A stretch of DNA of 64,000 bases from an uncultured Planctomycetia bacterium (lineage in GTDB: Bacteria; Omnitrophota; Gorgyraeia; Duberdicusellales; 4484-171), in NCBI GenBank assembly GCA_964629785.1, contig CAZVRU010000001.1, forward strand, positions 34,018 through 98,017, in the 5' to 3' direction. The notes under the pieces are model-generated. The model saw only the letters and a program-made list of their open reading frames with translations. It did not search any database and was not told the origin of the DNA. Below are positions 20,525 through 45,295 of the stretch, in pieces; within the stretch, counting starts at the first letter, position 1, and each line of letters starts with the position of its first letter. Made by a program: the position numbers and the translations under genes.

Positions 20525-21916
20525 TTATTTTTTCTCGCCGTTGAGAAAATCTACCATACACTGAGCAGCTTTGCGTGCCTGGCATATCGCGCTGATAACC
20601 GTAGCCGAACCGCTGACGATATCTCCGCCGGCAAAAATATCGGCCACCGAACTTTGACAACATTCATTTACTTTTATATATCCCCGGGAACTTGTTTCCA
20701 GGCCATTCATGGTCGAAGTAAGCAAAGGGTTGGCTCTTGTGCCTACGGCTACGATCACCGTATCCACATCCATGGTGAACTCCGAACCTTTTATCGGTAC
20801 CGGCCGGCGTCTTCCCGAAGCATCCGGTTCGCCCAGTTCGTTCTTGATGCATTTCAGACCGGCCACATTGCCTTTGCCGTCGGAAAGTATTTCCAGCGGT
20901 GCGGTCAAAAGGTGAAAAGCGATGTCTTCTTCCCGGGCATTCTCTATTTCTTCGTTACGGGCCGGCATCTCTTTTTCGCTGCGGCGGTAGACTATCGCGG
21001 CCTCTTTCGCTCCCAGACGCAAAGCGCAGCGGGCGCAGTCAAAAGACACATTACCGGCGCCGATGACCGCTACTTTTTCGCCTATGCTGACCGGCGTATC
21101 GTACTCGGGAAAACGGTAACTCTTCATAAGATTGACCCTGGTAAGAAATTCATTGGCCGAATATACGCCGTTAAAATTTTCGCCGGGAATATCGAGAAAG
21201 ACCGGCAGACCGGCTCCGACCCCGACAAAAAAAGCTTTGAATCCTTTTTCCCGCAACTCATCAACGGTATGGGTCCGGCCCATCACCGCATCAGTATGCA
21301 CCACTACTCCCAGACTTCGGATATATTCCACTTCCTGGCCCACGATATTTTTGGGCAGTCTGAACTCGGGAATACCATACATCAGGACACCGCCTGCTTT
21401 ATGCAAAGCTTCGAACAAATGGACTTCGTAACCGGCTTTGACCAGATCAGCAGCACAGGTAAGTCCTGCCGGCCCTGAACCGATGACTGCCACTTTGATC
21501 TTTCCGGTCTTATCGGCGGCCGGAGCGGATCGGTCCGCGGCTGCGGCATTTTTCAATTCCCAGTCGGCTACGAACCGTTCCAGATATCCTATCTGGATCG
21601 GATCGCCTTTACGGTTCAATACACAAGCCAGCTGGCACTGCTCTTCCTGCGGACATACCCGGCCGCATACCCCGGGCAGACTGTTGCTTTCCTTTATCGT
21701 CCGGATGGCCCCGGCATAATCCTTTTCCCGTATCAGGGCAATAAATTTTTTCACGTCTATTCCGGCCGGACAGCCCTGGATACAGGGAGCGGTCTTGCAC
21801 TGCAGACAGCGCCGGGCTTCTTTAAGACATTCGGCTTCATCGAACCCCTGCGATACTTCCTTAAATGAGGTTTTCCGCTGATCGATAGCAAGCTTGGTTA
21901 TATTTCCTTTTTCCAT
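20525..21916 (-). CDS. NADPH-dependent oxidoreductase, large subunit of the GltD / NfnB / SudA family (annotated as glutamate synthase small-chain-like)
   Basis: Fe-S Cys clusters CLQCKTAPCIQGCPAG and CGRVCPQEEQCQLAC. Two Rossmann motifs: VAVIGSGPAGLTCA and VAVIGAGNVSFDCA. The start is moved from 21997 to ATG 21916, 1 nt after the upstream stop. This gives 463 aa, typical for the family. Confidence 0.85.
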   Translation of the reverse strand: MEKGNITKLAIDQRKTSFKEVSQGFDEAECLKEARRCLQCKTAPCIQGCPAGIDVKKFIALIREKDYAGAIRTIKESNSLPGVCGRVCPQEEQCQLACVLNRKGDPIQIGYLERFVADWELKNAAAADRSAPAADKTGKIKVAVIGSGPAGLTCAADLVKAGYEVHLFEALHKAGGVLMYGIPEFRLPKNIVGQEVEYIRSLGVVVHTDAVMGRTHTVDELREKGFKAFFVGVGAGLPVFLDIPGENFNGVYSANEFLTRVNLMKSYRFPEYDTPVSIGEKVAVIGAGNVSFDCARCALRLGAKEAAIVYRRSEKEMPARNEEIENAREEDIAFHLLTAPLEILSDGKGNVAGLKCIKNELGEPDASGRRRPVPIKGSEFTMDVDTVIVAVGTRANPLLTSTMNGLETSSRGYIKVNECCQSSVADIFAGGDIVSGSATVISAICQARKAAQCMVDFLNGEKK

Positions 21917-21917
21917 C

Positions 21918-22784
21918 CTAATTCCCCTGTTTGTTAAGACATCTGCAATTTTTATCCGGGCGGATCTTCTCCAGGGCCTGTTTTTCCTGGGGGACAAAAC
22001 GTTTCTGACGCGACAATAGTTCTTCGAAATCTACCAGATGACCGTCAAAATCAGGACCGTCCACACAGCAGAATCTGACCTTACCGCCTTCTGTGAGACG
22101 GCATCCGCCGCACATACCTGTACCGTCGATCATTATCGTGCAGAGACAGACGATCGTCTTTATCCCGTAAGGACGGGTTAATTCCGACACTGCTTTCATC
22201 ATCGGCAGGGGGCCGACACAATAGACCAGTTTAAAATCACCGTCTTTTTCCAGTATCCGCTGCAGAGGTCCGGTAACAAAACCTTTTTCGCCGAAACTTC
22301 CGTCATCGGTCACCGGATAAAACGAATCGGAAAACGATTTTATCTCGTCTTTCAAAACCAGAAGATCGCGGGACCGGGCTCCCAGGATGGTATGCAATGA
22401 GCAGCCTGCTTTTTTCAAAGCCTTTACTACCGGATAGACCTCGGCAATTCCCACTCCGCCTCCCACAATAAGTACCTTGCCGTAATTTTCGATAGGAGTG
22501 GGATTTCCCAGAGGGCCGACAAAGGAATAAAGACTTTGTCCGACCTCTAATGTCCCCAGTCTTTTTGTAGTATACCCCACTTCCTGAAACATTATGGTCA
22601 CTGTCCCTTTTCGGGCATCGGTATCGACAATGGTCAAAGGGATGCGTTCACCCTGCTCACTGACCATAAGGATCACGAACTGACCGGGCTGCGCTTTAGC
22701 GGCGACCTCCGGAGAAGCGATGACCATAGAGGTTATCCGCGGCTCCTGATCTCCGCTTACGATTTTCTTCTCGATGATTTTCAT
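21918..22784 (-). CDS. FAD/NAD-binding ferredoxin-reductase-like small subunit (NfnA / SudB / PyrK-like) with a C-terminal 2Fe-2S Cys motif
   Basis: 288 aa. PGQFVILMV, GPLGNP, VGGGVGIAEVYP, C-terminal GTGMCGGCR...FCCVDGP. A GAGGAGGG Shine-Dalgarno sequence is present. Confidence 0.8.
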   Translation of the reverse strand: MKIIEKKIVSGDQEPRITSMVIASPEVAAKAQPGQFVILMVSEQGERIPLTIVDTDARKGTVTIMFQEVGYTTKRLGTLEVGQSLYSFVGPLGNPTPIENYGKVLIVGGGVGIAEVYPVVKALKKAGCSLHTILGARSRDLLVLKDEIKSFSDSFYPVTDDGSFGEKGFVTGPLQRILEKDGDFKLVYCVGPLPMMKAVSELTRPYGIKTIVCLCTIMIDGTGMCGGCRLTEGGKVRFCCVDGPDFDGHLVDFEELLSRQKRFVPQEKQALEKIRPDKNCRCLNKQGN

Positions 22785-22840
22785 GAACCCTCCTCAGATT
22801 ATCCTGATTATCCGGCCAAAAGCCGCCCGGACAGGCCTCT

Positions 22841-22883
22841 AAAAACAAAAAAGGCGCCCTTTCTTATGTGAAAAGACGCCTTT
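22841..22883 (-). terminator. Intrinsic terminator-type hairpin about 55 nt upstream of the NfnA-like start codon. It is either the terminator of the upstream module or a leader attenuator.
   Basis: On the minus strand: AAAGGCGTCTTT-tcacataag-AAAGG(G)CGCCTTT, a stem of about 12 bp with one bulge and one G-U pair. It is followed by TTTGTTTTT. Confidence 0.7.
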
Positions 22884-22896
22884 GTCTTGAAAATAT

Positions 22897-22924
22897 ATAG
22901 TACCACATCAGTAAAACGTGTCAA
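22897..22924 (-). promoter_or_regulatory. sigma70-like promoter (extended -10) upstream of the terminator hairpin and the NfnAB-like operon
   Basis: On the minus strand: TTGACA (22924-22919), 16 nt spacer, TGgTACTAT (-10 at 22902-22897). Confidence 0.45.
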
Positions 22925-22963
22925 CTTTCTTTTAAGCCGCATTAAACGACCACAGACTACAGT

Positions 22964-22998
22964 CGATAATCTATGGTTTATGGTCTATGGTCGATAGT
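22964..22998. repeat. Degenerate 7-bp tandem repeat array (5 units)
   Basis: cgataat|ctatggt|ttatggt|ctatggt|cgatagt, read directly from the sequence. It directly abuts the 48-nt core repeat. Confidence 0.75.
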
Positions 22999-23001
22999 CA
23001 A

Positions 23002-23049
23002 ATTTTGCAATGCTAAATCCCGCCTTGCCGTCGAGGCAGGTTGCAATTT
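23002..23049. repeat. 48-nt conserved core repeat, copy A
   Basis: attttgcaatgctaaatcccgccttgccgtcgaggcaggttGcaattt. It matches 24287-24334 at 47/48 positions in the same orientation and contains the bulged hairpin CCT(T)GCC-gtcga-GGCAGG (23023-23040). Confidence 0.9.
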
Positions 23050-23060
23050 ACAATTTGCAT

Positions 23061-23095
23061 TTTCTCTCGCCTATCGCCTCTCGCCTATTGCCTAT
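23061..23095. repeat. Degenerate 7-bp tandem repeat array (5 units)
   Basis: tttctct|cgcctat|cgcctct|cgcctat|tgcctat. Confidence 0.75.
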
Positions 23096-23127
23096 ATCCC
23101 ATGAATTTTAGCATCGAGTATACTTCC

Positions 23128-23655
23128 TCAGTATTCGATGCCTTCCCGGGCCCGGACGCCTCGGTCAAAAGGATGTTTTTCTTTGACAATGACGCTCAGA
23201 TAATCAGCCAGATGGCACAGCTCAGGCGGGGCAGTTCTGCCGGTCATTATTATTTCGGTCCGGGAAGCTTTTTTAATAAGCTTTTTCAGACGAGCCAGAC
23301 TGCAGAATCCCTGGTCCAGGCTGTTCAGTATCTCGTCGAGAACAATCACCTCATATCTATTTTTTTCCAGAAATTTTTCGATCTTATCCAGGGCCGCGGC
23401 AGTGGAAGCGCGTATTTCTTTCTTTTTAAACGGCAGTTTCCCCTGCTGAAAAAGAGGATGTATCTGATGAGAAAATCTTTCGATTTTCAGGGGAAGACGG
23501 CAACTGGCCAGGGCTTTGATAAAACCGCTGGGAATATTCCGGCCCTTTAAGAACTGGGCTACATATACTTTTTTGCCGAATCCCGCAGCCCGCAAGGCCA
23601 GGCCCAGGGCAGCAGTGGTCTTCCCCTTGCCGTCTCCTATATAAAAATGGACCAT
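23128..23655 (-). CDS. cobO: ATP:cob(I)alamin / cob(I)yrinic acid a,c-diamide adenosyltransferase (CobO/CobA/BtuR family)
   Basis: 175 aa. P-loop YIGDGKGKTTAALGLALRAAG, then VAQFLKG, LDEILN, and C-terminal HPFDRGVRAREGIEY. Its 5' end overlaps the upstream gene by 19 nt. Confidence 0.85.
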   Translation of the reverse strand: MVHFYIGDGKGKTTAALGLALRAAGFGKKVYVAQFLKGRNIPSGFIKALASCRLPLKIERFSHQIHPLFQQGKLPFKKKEIRASTAAALDKIEKFLEKNRYEVIVLDEILNSLDQGFCSLARLKKLIKKASRTEIIMTGRTAPPELCHLADYLSVIVKEKHPFDRGVRAREGIEY

Positions 23656-24143
23656 TGTCTCACTATCTCCGGAATAACCATGCTCAACACCGTCACTATC
23701 CCTCCGGCGATCATCACGCCCAGGAAAATAGCCGTAAACGCTTTTTTGGTATCAAGTTCGACCAGAGTCGCAGCCACGCTTCCGGTCCATGCTCCAGTGA
23801 CCGGCAACGGTATGGCTACGAACATGACCAGGCCCCAGAACCCCCAGGTCCGTACTGCTGTTGAACGTCTTTCCACTGCCGAAAACCACCAGCGGAAAAA
23901 AGACCCGACGAATCTGATCCCGGTGAGCCGGTGGAAAAAATATCGGAAAAAAAGAAGCAGCGGTATCACCGGAGCCAGGTTGCCCAGTAAAGCCAGAAAA
24001 TATGTCCTGAGCGGCGGCAGATGGAATGACACTATGCCCACCGGTATTGCCAGTCGTAATTCGAATACCGGCAGCATTCCCATCAATGACACTGCCAGAT
24101 CTTTAGGCAGTCCGTTTATCCAGTTATAAAGCTCTGCGATCAT
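23637..24143 (-). CDS. Small polytopic membrane protein (COG2426-like putative small multidrug export protein family)
   Basis: Four or five hydrophobic segments. LPVFELRLAIPVG resembles the family motif. The start is uncertain: the ORF track uses TTG 24167, which lies inside the heptamer array. I prefer ATG 24143. Neither has a clear Shine-Dalgarno sequence. Confidence 0.55.
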   Translation of the reverse strand: MIAELYNWINGLPKDLAVSLMGMLPVFELRLAIPVGIVSFHLPPLRTYFLALLGNLAPVIPLLLFFRYFFHRLTGIRFVGSFFRWWFSAVERRSTAVRTWGFWGLVMFVAIPLPVTGAWTGSVAATLVELDTKKAFTAIFLGVMIAGGIVTVLSMVIPEIVRQWSIFI

Positions 24144-24150
24144 AAACAGT

Positions 24151-24213
24151 CGATAGCCAATGGTCAATAGTCACAAATAGCGTTTAGCGGATAGCGGTTA
24201 GGGTCTAGGGCGC
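24151..24213. repeat. Degenerate 7-bp tandem repeat array (about 9 units)
   Basis: cgatagc|caatggt|caatagt|cacaaat|agcgttt|agcggat|agcggtt|agggtct|agggcgc. The first units resemble the array at 22964-22998. Confidence 0.7.
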
Positions 24214-24233
24214 GCTTCGCGCTATTCCATTGA

Positions 24234-24268
24234 AAAATTTAAAACGTAAATTTTAAAATGCAAAATGC
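24234..24268. repeat. 7-bp-periodic A-tract array (5 units)
   Basis: aaaattt|aaaacgt|aaatttt|aaaatgc|aaaatgc. Confidence 0.7.
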
Positions 24269-24286
24269 AATCCTATCCCACGTCCT

Positions 24287-24334
24287 ATTTTGCAATGCTA
24301 AATCCCGCCTTGCCGTCGAGGCAGGTTACAATTT
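24287..24334. repeat. 48-nt conserved core repeat, copy B
   Basis: attttgcaatgctaaatcccgccttgccgtcgaggcaggttAcaattt. It lies 1285 bp from copy A in direct orientation, with the single difference at 24328. Confidence 0.9.
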
Positions 24335-24354
24335 CCGCATCCTTCCGTACTTTT

Positions 24355-24392
24355 GAAATTCGAACGATTAGAATAATAGGACTTCGAATTTC
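24355..24392. promoter_or_regulatory. Perfect 10-bp inverted repeat (candidate operator or AT-rich hairpin)
   Basis: GAAATTCGAA (24355-24364), 18 nt spacer, TTCGAATTTC (24383-24392). Confidence 0.5.
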
Positions 24393-24430
24393 ATCTCCCG
24401 ATGAATTGTGTACAATTTTCGGGACTTAAA

Positions 24431-24458
24431 CCCCGAGAATCTGAAAGATTCCTCGGGG
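24431..24458. other. Long stem-loop in the pcm-downstream gap
   Basis: CCCCGAGAATC-tgaaa-GATT(C)CTCGGGG, 11 bp with one bulge. The 5' arm can alternatively pair with TCGGG at 24419-24423. There is no clear T-run on either strand. Confidence 0.55.
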
Positions 24459-24557
24459 CCGATAAGCTGCGGAAAAATATCGTATATATTGTTTCCGCTA
24501 TTCAGGCGCATCGGGGTTCCTTTTGCCTTTTTCCTTTTTACTTGCCGAGACAGGCGG

Positions 24558-25208
24558 CTATGTTTCGAACCCGTATTTACCGAGAAGCGGCACGAATACG
24601 CACCAGCCCAGAGAGCTCTGCGTGTATTCATCGGCAGTGATCCTGTCCAGGCAGATCAGCTGCTGTTCTACCCTGTCACCTATCGGAATGATCATCCGGC
24701 CCGGACAGCCTAACTGCTTTTTCAAAGGTGCCGGAACTTCAGGCGCCGCAGCACTGACAATTATCTTATCAAAAGGAGCTTTTTCTTCCCAGCCCTGGCT
24801 GCCGTCGCCCTGAATGAGCGACGCTTTAAGCCGCAATTCGTCTAAAACCTCCCGGGCCCGGGAAACAAGACCGGAAACAAGCTCGACACTGAATAGCGAG
24901 GCCTGCATAAAAGCCAGCAAAGCGGTCTGATAACCGCTGCCGGCGCCCACTTCCAGGACTTTATCCCCCGGCTTTATTTCCAGGACTTCCAGCATCAAGG
25001 CCACTATGTACGGCTGGGAGATGGTCTGTCCCCAGCCAATGGGCAAAGGGCAATCGTCATAGGCCCGGCTCTGATCCTGAGGCAGGACAAACTTTTCGCG
25101 GGGTATTCCGCTGAAAGCCTCGAGCACCGACCGGTCGGTTATACCCCGGCCCCTGAGCTGATGCGCCACCATCTGCCGGCGATGCACAGCGAAATCATTT
25201 TTTATCAT
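24558..25208 (-). CDS. pcm: Protein-L-isoaspartate O-methyltransferase
   Basis: 216 aa. GQTISQPYIVALMLE, VLEVGAGSGYQTALLA, and C-terminal FVPLLG. Confidence 0.9.
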   Translation of the reverse strand: MIKNDFAVHRRQMVAHQLRGRGITDRSVLEAFSGIPREKFVLPQDQSRAYDDCPLPIGWGQTISQPYIVALMLEVLEIKPGDKVLEVGAGSGYQTALLAFMQASLFSVELVSGLVSRAREVLDELRLKASLIQGDGSQGWEEKAPFDKIIVSAAAPEVPAPLKKQLGCPGRMIIPIGDRVEQQLICLDRITADEYTQSSLGWCVFVPLLGKYGFET

Positions 25209-38264: not shown

Positions 38265-38300
38265 ATCATTCTCCTTTTACTAAAAATACGGTGCCCACGC

Positions 38301-38414
38301 TTACCCCTGCCTTTGTTTATGCTTGGGATTTTTACAGATAACGCGTACCACACCCTTGCGTTTTATTATCCTGCACTTATCACAAATTTTTTTTACTGAA
38401 GCTTTTACTTTCAT
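38301..38414 (-). CDS. rpmJ: 50S ribosomal protein L36 (zinc-binding form)
   Basis: Not in the ORF track because it is too short. Hand translation of the reverse complement gives [37 protein letters not shown] followed by a stop (37 aa). Confidence 0.95.
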
Positions 38415-38457
38415 CTTAGCACCTTTTCGTCATAGACCGCATAAAACAAACAATTTT

Positions 38458-39207
38458 TCAAGTGATCACCAGTGGACCGCGGGCCGTGATCGCCACCGTA
38501 TGTTCATAATGACAGCTTAACTCTTTGTCCCTGGTCCGGGCAGTCCAGCCATCGGCCATTATTTCTACTTCACTGCCTCCGGCACAAAGCATCGGTTCGA
38601 TGGCGATGATCATTCCTTCTTCCAGGACCATTCCGGTTCCGGCCTTACCGTAATTCGGCACTTCCGGTTCCATATGCAGGTCCCTGCCTATCCCGTGTCC
38701 GACAAAATTGCGTACCACGGAAAAACCGCGCGATTCGGCCAGAGACTGAACCGCCTCGCCGATGTCCCCGATACGCGCCCCGGGCCGGGCAGCATTGATA
38801 GCCCGCTTCAGGCACTCCTGTCCGGTAAGGCACAGAAGTCTTGCCTGCGGCGAAACTTTTGCCACCTGATAGGTATAGGCTGTATCGACATATACGCCGT
38901 TATAGAGTACTCCCAGATCGACACTCACCAGATCGCCGGCCTTGATCACCCGGTCATCGGAAGGAATACCGTGAATAATCTCTTCGTTCACGGCCACGCA
39001 TAACGATGCCGGATAACCGGAATATCCTTTGAACGCCGCTTCCATTCCGGGATTTTTTTTCAGCCAGTCTACAAAGAACTTTTCGATAGCCCGGGTAGTT
39101 ATCCCCGGCCTGATGAATTTTTTCAGCCGACTCAGGGTTTGGCCTGCGACTTTTCCTGCTTTCCTCATATCACCGAGTTCAGCGGGGGAAAGTCTATTTT
39201 CCATCAT
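38458..39207 (-). CDS. map: Type I methionine aminopeptidase
   Basis: 249 aa. GYPASLCVAVNEEIIHGIP, DLGVLYNGVYVD, FVGHGIG, IEPM, YEHTV. Confidence 0.95.
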   Translation of the reverse strand: MMENRLSPAELGDMRKAGKVAGQTLSRLKKFIRPGITTRAIEKFFVDWLKKNPGMEAAFKGYSGYPASLCVAVNEEIIHGIPSDDRVIKAGDLVSVDLGVLYNGVYVDTAYTYQVAKVSPQARLLCLTGQECLKRAINAARPGARIGDIGEAVQSLAESRGFSVVRNFVGHGIGRDLHMEPEVPNYGKAGTGMVLEEGMIIAIEPMLCAGGSEVEIMADGWTARTRDKELSCHYEHTVAITARGPLVIT

Positions 39208-43374: not shown

Positions 43375-43428
43375 TATACTCCTCGCATTGATTTTTAGCG
43401 CAGCGCGATCAGCGCCGCTTAAATCTTT

Positions 43429-43623
43429 TTACCAGCTGGCTTTTTTCACGCCGGGTATCAGCCCCCGCCAGGCCAGCTGACGGAAACAGATACGGCACAG
43501 TTCGAAATCCCTGATATAGGCACGCGGCCGGCCGCATAAACGGCAACGATTTTTTTGCCGCGTGGAAAATTTCGCTTTCCGCCGCTCCCGTCTCCATTTC
43601 TCGATCTTTGCTGTAGTCGCCAT
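43429..43623 (-). CDS. rpsN: 30S ribosomal protein S14, short zinc-binding type Z
   Basis: 64 aa. [38 protein letters not shown]. Confidence 0.95.
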
Positions 43624-43635
43624 AATTACCCTCGA

Positions 43636-44868: not shown

Positions 44869-45110
44869 TTCACCACCTCAAGCAATCTGAATCTTTTTTC
44901 CTTGGAATAAGGCCGTGCCTCGATTATCCGCACTTTGTCGCCGGCTTTTGCTTTATCTTCCGGATCATGGACTTTGAACTTATTTCTGCTCTTGACAAAT
45001 TTTTTATACATGGAATGAGATATCTTTTCCTCGATCTGGACCACGCAGGTCTTTTTCATCTTATCGGATATCACCACACCCTCGAATATCTTTTTACGGG
45101 TATTTTTCAT
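44865..45110 (-). CDS. rpsQ: 30S ribosomal protein S17
   Basis: [17 protein letters not shown]...[28 protein letters not shown]. Confidence 0.95.
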
Positions 45111-45295
45111 CTTTTTTTCTCCTGTAATACAGTAAGGATCCTGGCGATATCTTTCCTGATCTGTTTGAAAAAATGAGGCTTTTCCACCTGAGCCGTGCTC
45201 TTTTTAAAACTCAGCTCCATCAGCTGTTTACGCAGATCCTTTACTTTGTCTTCCAGTTCCTGCGGCGTTAAATTGGTATAATCGTTCTTTTTCAT
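45107..45295 (-). CDS. rpmC: 50S ribosomal protein L29
   Basis: 62 aa. [23 protein letters not shown]. It sits between rplP and rpsQ. Confidence 0.9.

Follow-up and report, generated by a model that had tools for sequence, protein, structure and literature searches.

What do two almost identical non-coding repeats signify when they stand on either side of a two-gene module? The question is raised by a 64-kb stretch of DNA (64,000 nt, hereafter the window) from an Omnitrophota-like metagenome-assembled genome (MAG), in which the 48-mer ATTTTGCAATGCTAAATCCCGCCTTGCCGTCGAGGCAGGTT[G/A]CAATTT occurs twice, on the two sides of a gene pair encoding a membrane protein and CobO. A reading made from the letters alone (hereafter the sequence-only reading) had considered a shared cis-regulatory site, a small RNA (sRNA), the boundaries of an inserted cassette, or a dispersed REP/MITE-like family. 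The analysis reported here indicates that the repeats are probably, with a rough probability of 0.62, solitary copies of a nuclease-associated hairpin repeat that is analogous to the NTS/SRM-Ssn or REP-RAYT systems and is lodged here in heptanucleotide tracts.

The repeats and their 22-nt core

A search of the window confirmed both copies (23002-23049 and 24287-24334), their common strand, their distance of 1285 nt and their identity at 47 of 48 positions, the sole mismatch being a G at 23043 against an A at 24328. Weak similarity around the 48-mers reaches 53 nt (from 22997/24282, 94%). No third copy was found in the window at up to 3 mismatches, nor at up to 5 edits of the core, and none of 100 shuffled windows gave a repeat match. 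When the two intergenic regions are aligned, the repeat is their only common block, with sharp edges and unrelated surroundings. Each 48-mer is composed of a GC-rich quasi-palindrome of 22 nt (CCCGCCTTGCCGTCGAGGCAGG) and of 26 nt, i.e. about three units, of the local 7-nt-periodic tract:

23002..23049: repeat copy 1 (48-mer), which reads TT TTGCAAT GCTAAAT / 22-nt core / TTGCAAT TT, that is, the core plus local heptamer units
23019..23040: core of copy 1, 22-nt quasi-palindrome, CCCGCCTTGCCGTCGAGGCAGG on the plus strand and CCTGCCTCGACGGCAAGGCGGG on the minus strand, with an identical core in more than 180 foreign loci
24287..24334: repeat copy 2 (48-mer), whose A at 24328 falls in the flanking heptamer TTACAAT, outside the core
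24304..24325: core of copy 2, 22-nt hairpin identical to that of copy 1

Both copies contain the bulged hairpin that the sequence-only reading had described (CCTTGCC-GTCGA-GGCAGG), and an alternative register on the minus strand, CCTGCCU/AGGCGGG, provides a 7-bp stem. As RNA, the minus strand folds at -13.6 to -15.8 kcal/mol, with modest single-sequence z-scores for the hairpin (-0.5 to -2.0). The ends of the 48-mer share only the self-complementary TTGCAA. An independent Logan assembly (SRR2187629) reproduces positions 23030-24196 with 0 mismatches; as the sole other assembly compared, it displays no strain polymorphism at the locus. Two Logan contigs (L001 and L203; loci and contigs are designated by such numbers throughout) end exactly at the hairpin centre, at 23030/23031 of the window. 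This looks like an assembly-graph break at the quasi-palindrome, and such hairpins appear to fragment de Bruijn assemblies.

A core family dispersed across phyla

A scan of one genome per species with the pattern CCCGCCTTGCC-N5-GGCAGGTT retrieved 67 loci, compared with about 4 expected by chance (an arithmetic estimate from the 19 fixed bases). They belong to Patescibacteria, many Bacteroidota, Ratteibacteria and some proteobacterial MAGs, and no cyanobacterial locus is among these 67 exact-pattern matches. Several genomes carry multiple copies, one Nomurabacteria MAG about a dozen. A relaxed scan of metagenomes added at least 120 loci. The free loop is nearly always GGCGA or GTCGA and is conserved as G-N-CGA. 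The core is nearly invariant: the canonical C...A form accounts for 83 of the 127 metagenome matches listed, and the sole variants, which are few (CCTGCC...GGCAGG and CCCGCC...GGCGGG), are those that restore the one mismatched C.A pair.

The core was found in none of 72,556 plasmids, and matches in cultured organisms are only in-gene chance matches. The 8 matches in viral contigs have random loops and lie in GC-rich, apparently coding DNA; they serve as a negative control, and a phage vector for the core was rejected on account of these chance-like matches. Rfam gave no match at the gathering threshold in the window, only chance-level matches in 22700-24700 with none on the repeats, and only tRNAs in 20 family loci. 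A search of the searchable literature by sequence did not find the motif.

Most core copies are intergenic (52 of 60, 87%). Relative to the genes on either side, the two orientations are equally frequent (about 50:50), convergent, divergent and tandem contexts all occur without bias, and the neighbouring genes are unrelated. Random orientation and unrelated neighbours therefore argue against a directional cis-regulator, an sRNA or a terminator. The sequence-only reading had held that scattering in random intergenic contexts would dissolve any link to the genes at this locus, and dispersal in unrelated intergenic contexts is what other genomes display. K-mer enrichment revealed no conserved immediate flank; an outer stem directly abutting the core is not enriched, unlike a nearby helix (18.5% vs 4.1%).

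Palindromes that are sisters of the core (CCTGCCTGCCGGCAGGCAGG, CCTGCCTACCGGCAGGCAGG and others) are likewise found on their own as solitary copies, at times adjoining the 22-nt core (L008 5589, L011, L102, L110 7233, and the left flank of the core in L041), which suggests a wider CCTGCC...GGCAGG superfamily. Three loci (L003, L005 and L064) have a further palindrome, CTCCCGATAGCTATCGGGAG, after the core; it is similar to the C(C/T)CGATAGCTATCGGGA palindrome described below for a heptamer array. At L008 5511-5550 and L049 5375-5415, the core is directly followed by a partial tRNA-Gly 3' end (GGTTCGATTCCCTCCTACC), and a real tRNA-Gly(tcc) gene lies nearby on the other strand. A tRNA-derived origin of the core was considered and rejected, as these two loci show merely such a partial fragment beside it.

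Insertion of the core as a discrete module

A second hairpin family with covarying stems was found in core loci. Its sequence, GTCAT|YCC...GGR|A^TCCAG, matches the published Ssn-related motif (SRM/NTS; Chenal et al. 2025, PMC11893778). Empty SRM hairpins (n=21) read ...GGAA^TCCAG; several copies have the 22-mer and nothing more at ^, in one orientation or the other, and continue with TCCAGG-like sequence behind it. In yet others the 22-mer is placed within the hairpin loop. Likewise, the intact tRNA-Arg reads GGCCGCATAGTTCAA^CTGGATAG, and all five junctions of the tRNA-linked units described below (5/5) have exactly the 22-mer at ^, in the D-loop. Comparison of filled with empty sites revealed no target duplication, either in SRM hairpins or in tRNA-Arg. 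The 22-mer is a discrete module that inserts precisely, in either orientation and without target duplication; its precise sites include the tRNA D-loop, a fixed junction of the SRM hairpin, hairpin loops and the inside of heptamer arrays. The proposal of a dispersed REP/MITE-like family is thus supported in essence, the dispersal extending across phyla, but only the central 22 nt are the family element and, unlike MITEs (terminal inverted repeats plus target-site duplication, typically >50-100 nt), this common unit of 22 nt makes no duplication.

The window illustrates insertion into heptamer arrays. Strong lag-7 periodicity is essentially restricted to 22940-23112 and 24145-24277, and the features concerned are:

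22959..23098: heptamer tract holding copy 1, lag-7 autocorrelation up to 0.71
24146..24286: heptamer tract beside copy 2, CGATAGC CAATGGT CAATAGT ... AGCGTTT AGCGGAT AGCGGTT AGGGTCT ... ATGCAAA ATGCAAT
24210..24222: second small GC hairpin, GCGCG-CTT-CGCGC (GCGCGCTTCGCGC), within the tract of copy 2 in the gap between pcm and the membrane gene

On the left of copy 1, the heptamers read TATGGTT TATGGTC TATGGTC GATAGTC AAATTTT GCAATGC TAAAT up to the core, and on its right TT GCAATTT ACAATTT GCATTTT CTCTCGC CTATCGC CTCTCGC CTATTGC; removal of the 22 nt leaves the heptamer register unbroken. Across the family, flanks rejoin best at offset 0 once exactly 22 nt are deleted, the genome set has a higher lag-7 autocorrelation (0.32-0.34 vs about 0.26-0.30), and the flank is strongly 7-periodic for 19 of 129 core copies, compared with 66 of 1290 positions taken at random. 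The evidence that heptamer insertion is in phase throughout the family is suggestive only. Relatives devoid of the hairpin have similar heptamer tracts at equivalent places; the tracts are characteristic of the lineage, and the hairpin has been added to them. Such tracts are typical of Nostoc as well, and a 50-kb sample of a Nostoc plasmid contains them, with no interrupting module.

Association with a small GIY-YIG nuclease gene

Open reading frames (ORFs) in the vicinity of the core, with a minimum length of 50 aa, were re-clustered over 187 loci. This clustering revealed small GIY-YIG proteins (PF01541, E 1e-13 to 5e-17) in L047, L008, L091 and L137, and no other recurrent neighbour protein over the same 187 loci. 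An earlier clustering (ORFs of at least 70 aa, 67 loci) had listed the L008/L047 pair, which was recognised only after re-clustering.

In the organism of L047, a member of the Flavobacteriia, a heptamer array, the 5' part of a tRNA, the core, 20 nt and the GIY-YIG gene form a unit of 295 nt. Two to five such units are arranged in tandem between yqeY and a peptidase M90 gene, in numbers that vary among independent samples, with an intact tRNA-Arg at the end. The nuclease that they encode is a single domain of 77-85 aa. The tandem units of this locus were found at:

L204, 2001-3441
L205, 385-940
L207, 1231-1828
L206 and L047

The heptamer array of these units is made of TTCTAAY heptamers, whose number also differs among the L204-L207 assemblies. 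A small palindrome, C(C/T)CGATAGCTATCGGGA, lies in this array about 60-100 nt upstream of the first core in L204 and L205 and is absent from L206 and L207.

The association extends to other lineages. Bacteroidales homologs, fetched by protein alone (52-57% identity), are all accompanied by the 20-nt symmetric sister of the core, CCTGCCTGCCGGCAGGCAGG, or by close variants of it. This hairpin lies in an incomplete copy of tRNA-Arg, at the corresponding D-loop position and 30-40 nt ahead of the start codon; at its 3' end, the GIY-YIG gene adjoins an intact tRNA-Arg. A complete Ignavibacteriota genome carries two tandem 295-nt units, each consisting of a tRNA-like 5' part, CCTGTCTGCCGACAGGCAGG, 11 nt and the ATG. 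In L008, the same hairpin precedes the true GIY-YIG start, beside a tRNA-Gly. Across the four lineages, the hairpin lies 11-40 nt upstream of the GIY-YIG start. Core and sister (CCTGCCT-GCCGGCA-GGCAGG against CCTGCCTCGCCGGCAAGGCGGG) are identical at 19 of 20 positions apart from two 1-nt insertions. As side observations, a 32-nt duplication flanks the GIY-YIG gene of L008, and L214 contains at 2398-2480 an almost complete second tRNA-Arg-like copy with CCTGCCTGCCGGCAGGCAGG in its D-loop, which could be a pseudo-tRNA or an interrupted tRNA.

A profile of the nuclease subfamily retrieved 5,527 cluster representatives at E <= 1e-10, nearly all of 77-130 aa. Among the 150 top representatives (<50% mutual identity), 15 have hexapeptides encoded by the hairpin, such as PACRQA, LPAGRQ or CLPAGR, 10-25 residues before the true start. 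This count is a lower bound, since it relies on gene callers having over-extended the ORFs across the hairpin. Neither set of controls contained such a peptide (150 reversed sequences and 120 CobO proteins, 0 in each). The solved structures nearest to the nuclease are uncharacterised UPF0213 proteins (1ywl, 1zg2), and in NCBIfam it has weak similarity to GIY-YIG homing endonucleases (TIGR01453, a group I intron endonuclease family). The protein matches in plasmids and phages are ordinary Listeria UPF0213 genes.

Comparison with known hairpin repeats

The closest known hairpins are those of the SRM/NTS type, which SsnA, a small GIY-YIG nuclease, targets in single-stranded DNA (ssDNA) (Chenal et al., Nat Commun 2025, PMC11893778). 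Like them, the family consists of short (20-50 nt) imperfect palindromes that are mostly intergenic, multi-copy and common to distant phyla. It shares with them the physical coupling, IS-like in layout, of a hairpin family to the gene of a small nuclease with a single GIY-YIG domain, seen in the family outside the window, and the hairpin-gene-hairpin arrangement also found in Neisseria (PMC11893778). However, the SRM consensus HGTCWYN(0-2)YYVSBRHN(0-5)WNVSBRGN(0-2)RNCYNB has 0 matches in the window, on its repeats or on the nuclease-linked hairpins; it has 41 matches elsewhere in family loci, so the expression works. The present hairpin, CCTGCC...GGCAGG, differs from SRM in its location: it precedes the gene within a copied tRNA D-loop, in units that are 295 nt long and arranged in tandem. 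As the 22-mer, it is even inserted inside SRM hairpins. Pfam assigns the nuclease to PF01541 only, and its nearest solved relatives are the UPF0213 proteins.

REP elements are thought to be spread by a domesticated nuclease/transposase that recognises ssDNA hairpins (PMC3116915; PMC11893778). The core resembles REP/BIME-RAYT systems and REPINs in being an intergenic, GC-rich, imperfect palindrome that is orientation-independent and forms mosaics with other short motifs. However, no Y1 (IS200/IS605-like) transposase was found as a neighbour around the 187 core loci, and REP families are lineage-specific whereas the 22-mer is identical across phyla. REP elements also have a conserved 5' tetranucleotide next to the palindrome, and no such flank is conserved at the core.

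The small dispersed repeats (SDRs) of Nostocaceae, as later papers describe the family of Elhai et al. (2008, Genome Res 18:1484), are reportedly modules of 21-27 nt inserted precisely into host repeats, and are said to occur only in Nostocaceae; to our knowledge, no partner gene is known for them. By this description they resemble the core, a module of about 22 nt precisely inserted into host repeats (SRM hairpins, tRNA D-loop). The association with tandem heptanucleotide tracts, seen in the window and in a subset of core copies, also recalls the SDR/STRR heptamer repeats. In the scan of one genome per species, the core pattern was matched by no cyanobacterial genome.

Free-standing GIY-YIG homing endonuclease genes offer a last comparison, since here too a small gene is inserted in a conserved gene (a tRNA), with duplicated target segments that leave an intact copy, and the protein has the weak TIGR01453 similarity already mentioned. 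Unlike them, the present gene has no intron and no DNA-binding extension, encodes only 77-85 aa, and belongs to a unit whose conserved hairpin also exists as hundreds of solitary copies.

Origin of the repeats in the window

By analogy with NTS/SRM-SsnA and REP-RAYT, the GIY-YIG nuclease would recognise the hairpin in ssDNA, and the source genome of the window would encode such a nuclease. Nicking and repair, or recombination with a hairpin-bearing template, could seed solitary copies, which may spread locally via short-patch conversion between similar flanks, the heptamer arrays supplying in-register microhomology. In the window, one copy would have been recently duplicated into the neighbouring intergenic tract together with about three heptamers of flank, leaving the identity of 47/48. 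The bracketing of cobO and the membrane gene is incidental, and any effect on these genes would be generic, of the sort that a stable stem-loop has when it forms in ssDNA or in a transcript. The nuclease-associated mini-hairpin is most likely a new variant among the REP-RAYT/SRM-Ssn systems, distinguished by a 22-nt core that is unusual in spanning phyla and by a master unit of 295 nt linked to tRNA genes.

Several observations weigh against this nuclease-associated origin. The window contains no GIY-YIG gene and only two core copies in 64 kb. The asymmetric 22-nt allele adjoins the nuclease in one lineage only, the L047 group, the other lineages having the symmetric sister, and the nearby GIY-YIG genes of L091 and L137 have other flanks. 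Solitary cores are not enriched near tRNA genes (7 vs 4.4 +/- 2.0). Outside a few genomes, and in the metagenome set, the heptamer-phase signal is weak, with only a small number of strict cases. The hairpin could also be a passenger that merely favours tRNA-like or hairpin targets.

This last point leads to the strongest competitor, a selfish or neutral miniature hairpin repeat of REP/SDR type moved by something other than the GIY-YIG nuclease, such as template switching at quasi-palindromes, gene conversion or an unidentified transposase, the hairpin upstream of GIY-YIG genes being one more nested insertion into a tRNA-like target. Such an origin would suit the nesting of the core in several host sequences (SRM hairpins, hairpin loops, heptamer arrays), the >95% of copies without a nearby nuclease gene, the absence of a GIY-YIG gene from the window, and the Nostocaceae SDRs, which reportedly are tiny modules precisely inserted in host repeats with no known enzyme. 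However, nuclease units from four diverged lineages all have the hairpin in one place (tRNA D-loop, 11-40 nt ahead of the start codon), and 15 of 150 distant representatives encode it in their extensions, so that repeated independent passenger insertions are hard to accept; moreover, no other protein recurs as a neighbour. We therefore regard a nuclease-independent repeat as unlikely.

The association with the nuclease also invites a bolder and tentative proposal, which we consider rather doubtful. The CCTGCC...GGCAGG hairpin and its 77-85-aa GIY-YIG gene might constitute an ultra-small (295-nt) autonomous selfish element. It would home into the D-loops of tRNA genes, multiply there as tandem copies and release its hairpin of 20-22 nt as a mobile insertion module colonising SRM hairpins and heptanucleotide arrays across phyla. 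It would be a new pair distinct from Ssn/SRM, and the copies in the window would be its footprints. If this were true, hairpin-gene-hairpin brackets could mark DNA for ssDNA cleavage in uptake or recombination, as NTS do in Neisseria.

A 22-nt non-coding sequence identical in Patescibacteria, Bacteroidota, Omnitrophota-like and proteobacterial MAGs, and absent from Rfam, from the phage and plasmid collections and from the searchable literature, is unusual. Its link to the nuclease gives the 5,527 representatives of these 'hypothetical' tiny GIY-YIG proteins a candidate DNA partner; the pairing would extend the Ssn/SRM principle (a sequence-specific ssDNA nuclease and genomic hairpin repeats) to a second motif and clade and might offer a new ssDNA-cutting specificity. 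There is also a caution for annotation: where near-identical repeats lie in the intergenic DNA around genes of an uncultured genome, they can be nested mini-repeats instead of regulatory sites or the ends of a cassette. Assemblies tend to break at such hairpins.

The flanking genes: regulation or cassette

The gene identities and strands given by the sequence-only reading held up, all the genes being on the minus strand:

20525-22784, minus strand: NfnA/B-like pair, then glutamate dehydrogenase
22850..22883, minus strand: intrinsic-terminator-like hairpin with U-run, -22.1 kcal/mol, downstream of cobO and of copy 1
23128-23655, minus strand: CobO, bracketed by the repeats
23637-24143, minus strand: Sm_multidrug_ex membrane gene, bracketed by the repeats
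23128..24143, minus strand: the bracketed Sm_multidrug_ex and CobO pair, ancestral residents outside the element
24431..24458, minus strand: strong hairpin downstream of pcm, CCCCGAGGAATC...GATTCTCGGGG, -24 kcal/mol, with weak U-run, after which comes copy 2
24558-25208, minus strand: PCMT (pcm)

The two gaps that bear the repeats had been called the longest of the window. This is approximately right: a crude ORF map (minimum length 90 aa) ranks them second and fourth. Other long gaps (38265-38673, 43375-43635 and 44911-45291) look like unannotated short genes or alternative starts, and no heptamer periodicity or hairpin module was found in these three.

A service to the host, through an effect on the flanking genes, is a second alternative: the repeat would act as a REP-like stabiliser of mRNA 3' ends or partial terminator, as a shared operator or promoter, or as an sRNA coordinating the membrane/cobO and nfnAB operons. 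REP elements of E. coli stabilise upstream mRNA, and both copies of the window share the orientation of the genes, lie within transcribed-looking intergenic regions and fold as minus-strand RNA with the energies given above. Copy 1 is probably within the 3' untranslated region of cobO, because the terminator-like hairpin at 22850-22883 lies downstream of both cobO and this copy. However, the two copies are placed differently with regard to such hairpins, copy 1 before the cobO terminator and copy 2 after the pcm hairpin. The fold z-scores are weak, no Rfam family matches, and orthologous loci lack the element. In addition, the random orientation and unrelated neighbours seen family-wide are at odds with a gene-specific cis-regulator or sRNA, as the sequence-only reading had envisaged. 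An intrinsic terminator was rejected given the random family orientation and a hairpin devoid of U-run, and a known RNA family given the Rfam result. A sigma-54 promoter (TGGCAC-N5-TTGCW, with GG-N10-GC in GGGATTTAGCATTGCA) also fails: the candidate has 4 mismatches and is not among the matches at <=3 mismatches, of which the window contains 179 against 226 expected by chance. A host function of this kind is, all told, very improbable.

The comparison of orthologous loci decides the third alternative. The closest CobO homolog is only 65% identical, and the order GT2-(PCMT)-Sm_multidrug_ex-CobO-(NfnA-NfnB) is kept in the Omnitrophota relatives L069-L073 with CobO identities of 57-65%. The conserved order also includes, before GT2, a response regulator, an HD protein, MGDG synthase and lipid A acyltransferase, and in L072 pcm and the membrane gene overlap. 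No hairpin was found at the orthologous loci of these relatives at up to 5 mismatches. The sequence-only reading had envisaged relatives with pcm directly adjacent to the NfnA-like gene; instead, the membrane and cobO genes stay in between, without the repeat. It had also named orthologous loci that carry the two genes without the repeat and with the same expression; as regards gene content, such loci exist. As gene order is kept in relatives that lack the repeat, the membrane and cobO module is ancestral, and the repeats are later additions to variable intergenic DNA. Att-like ends or cassette boundaries left by insertion of the two genes (as an island, an integron-like cassette or a composite transposon) are consequently a negligible prospect: near-identical direct repeats do flank exactly two genes, as do the roughly inverted heptamer arrays at 23064-23098 and 24177-24207, and a relative's PF05635 gene does resemble a heptamer-flanked cassette, but the order is conserved without the repeat, the two genes overlap in L072, no integrase or transposase lies near the repeats, and elsewhere the repeat core occurs singly in unrelated contexts.

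The CTATCGC-type array (23064-23098) and the AGCGGAT-type array (24177-24207) around the membrane and cobO pair have counterparts in other genomes. A similar TAGCGNT array follows cobO in L069 (6521-6582). Where the window has copy 1, the cobO-nfnA gap of another relative (L070 6600-6740) contains a long inverted repeat, gtaggggcgtcgcttgtctgcgcccg ... cgggcgtagacaagcgacgcccctac. Inverted heptamer arrays also flank small PF05635/'four helix bundle' genes (23S rRNA IVS protein-like) in an Omnitrophota relative (L072 3756-3805 and 4152-4194, also L073) and in Nostoc (L202, Nostoc punctiforme pNPUN01, 1543-1617 and 1952-2012). The PF05635 gene of the relative looks like an inserted cassette with heptamer-array ends, because in L069 the same neighbours, the lipid A acyltransferase and GT2 genes, are adjacent without it.

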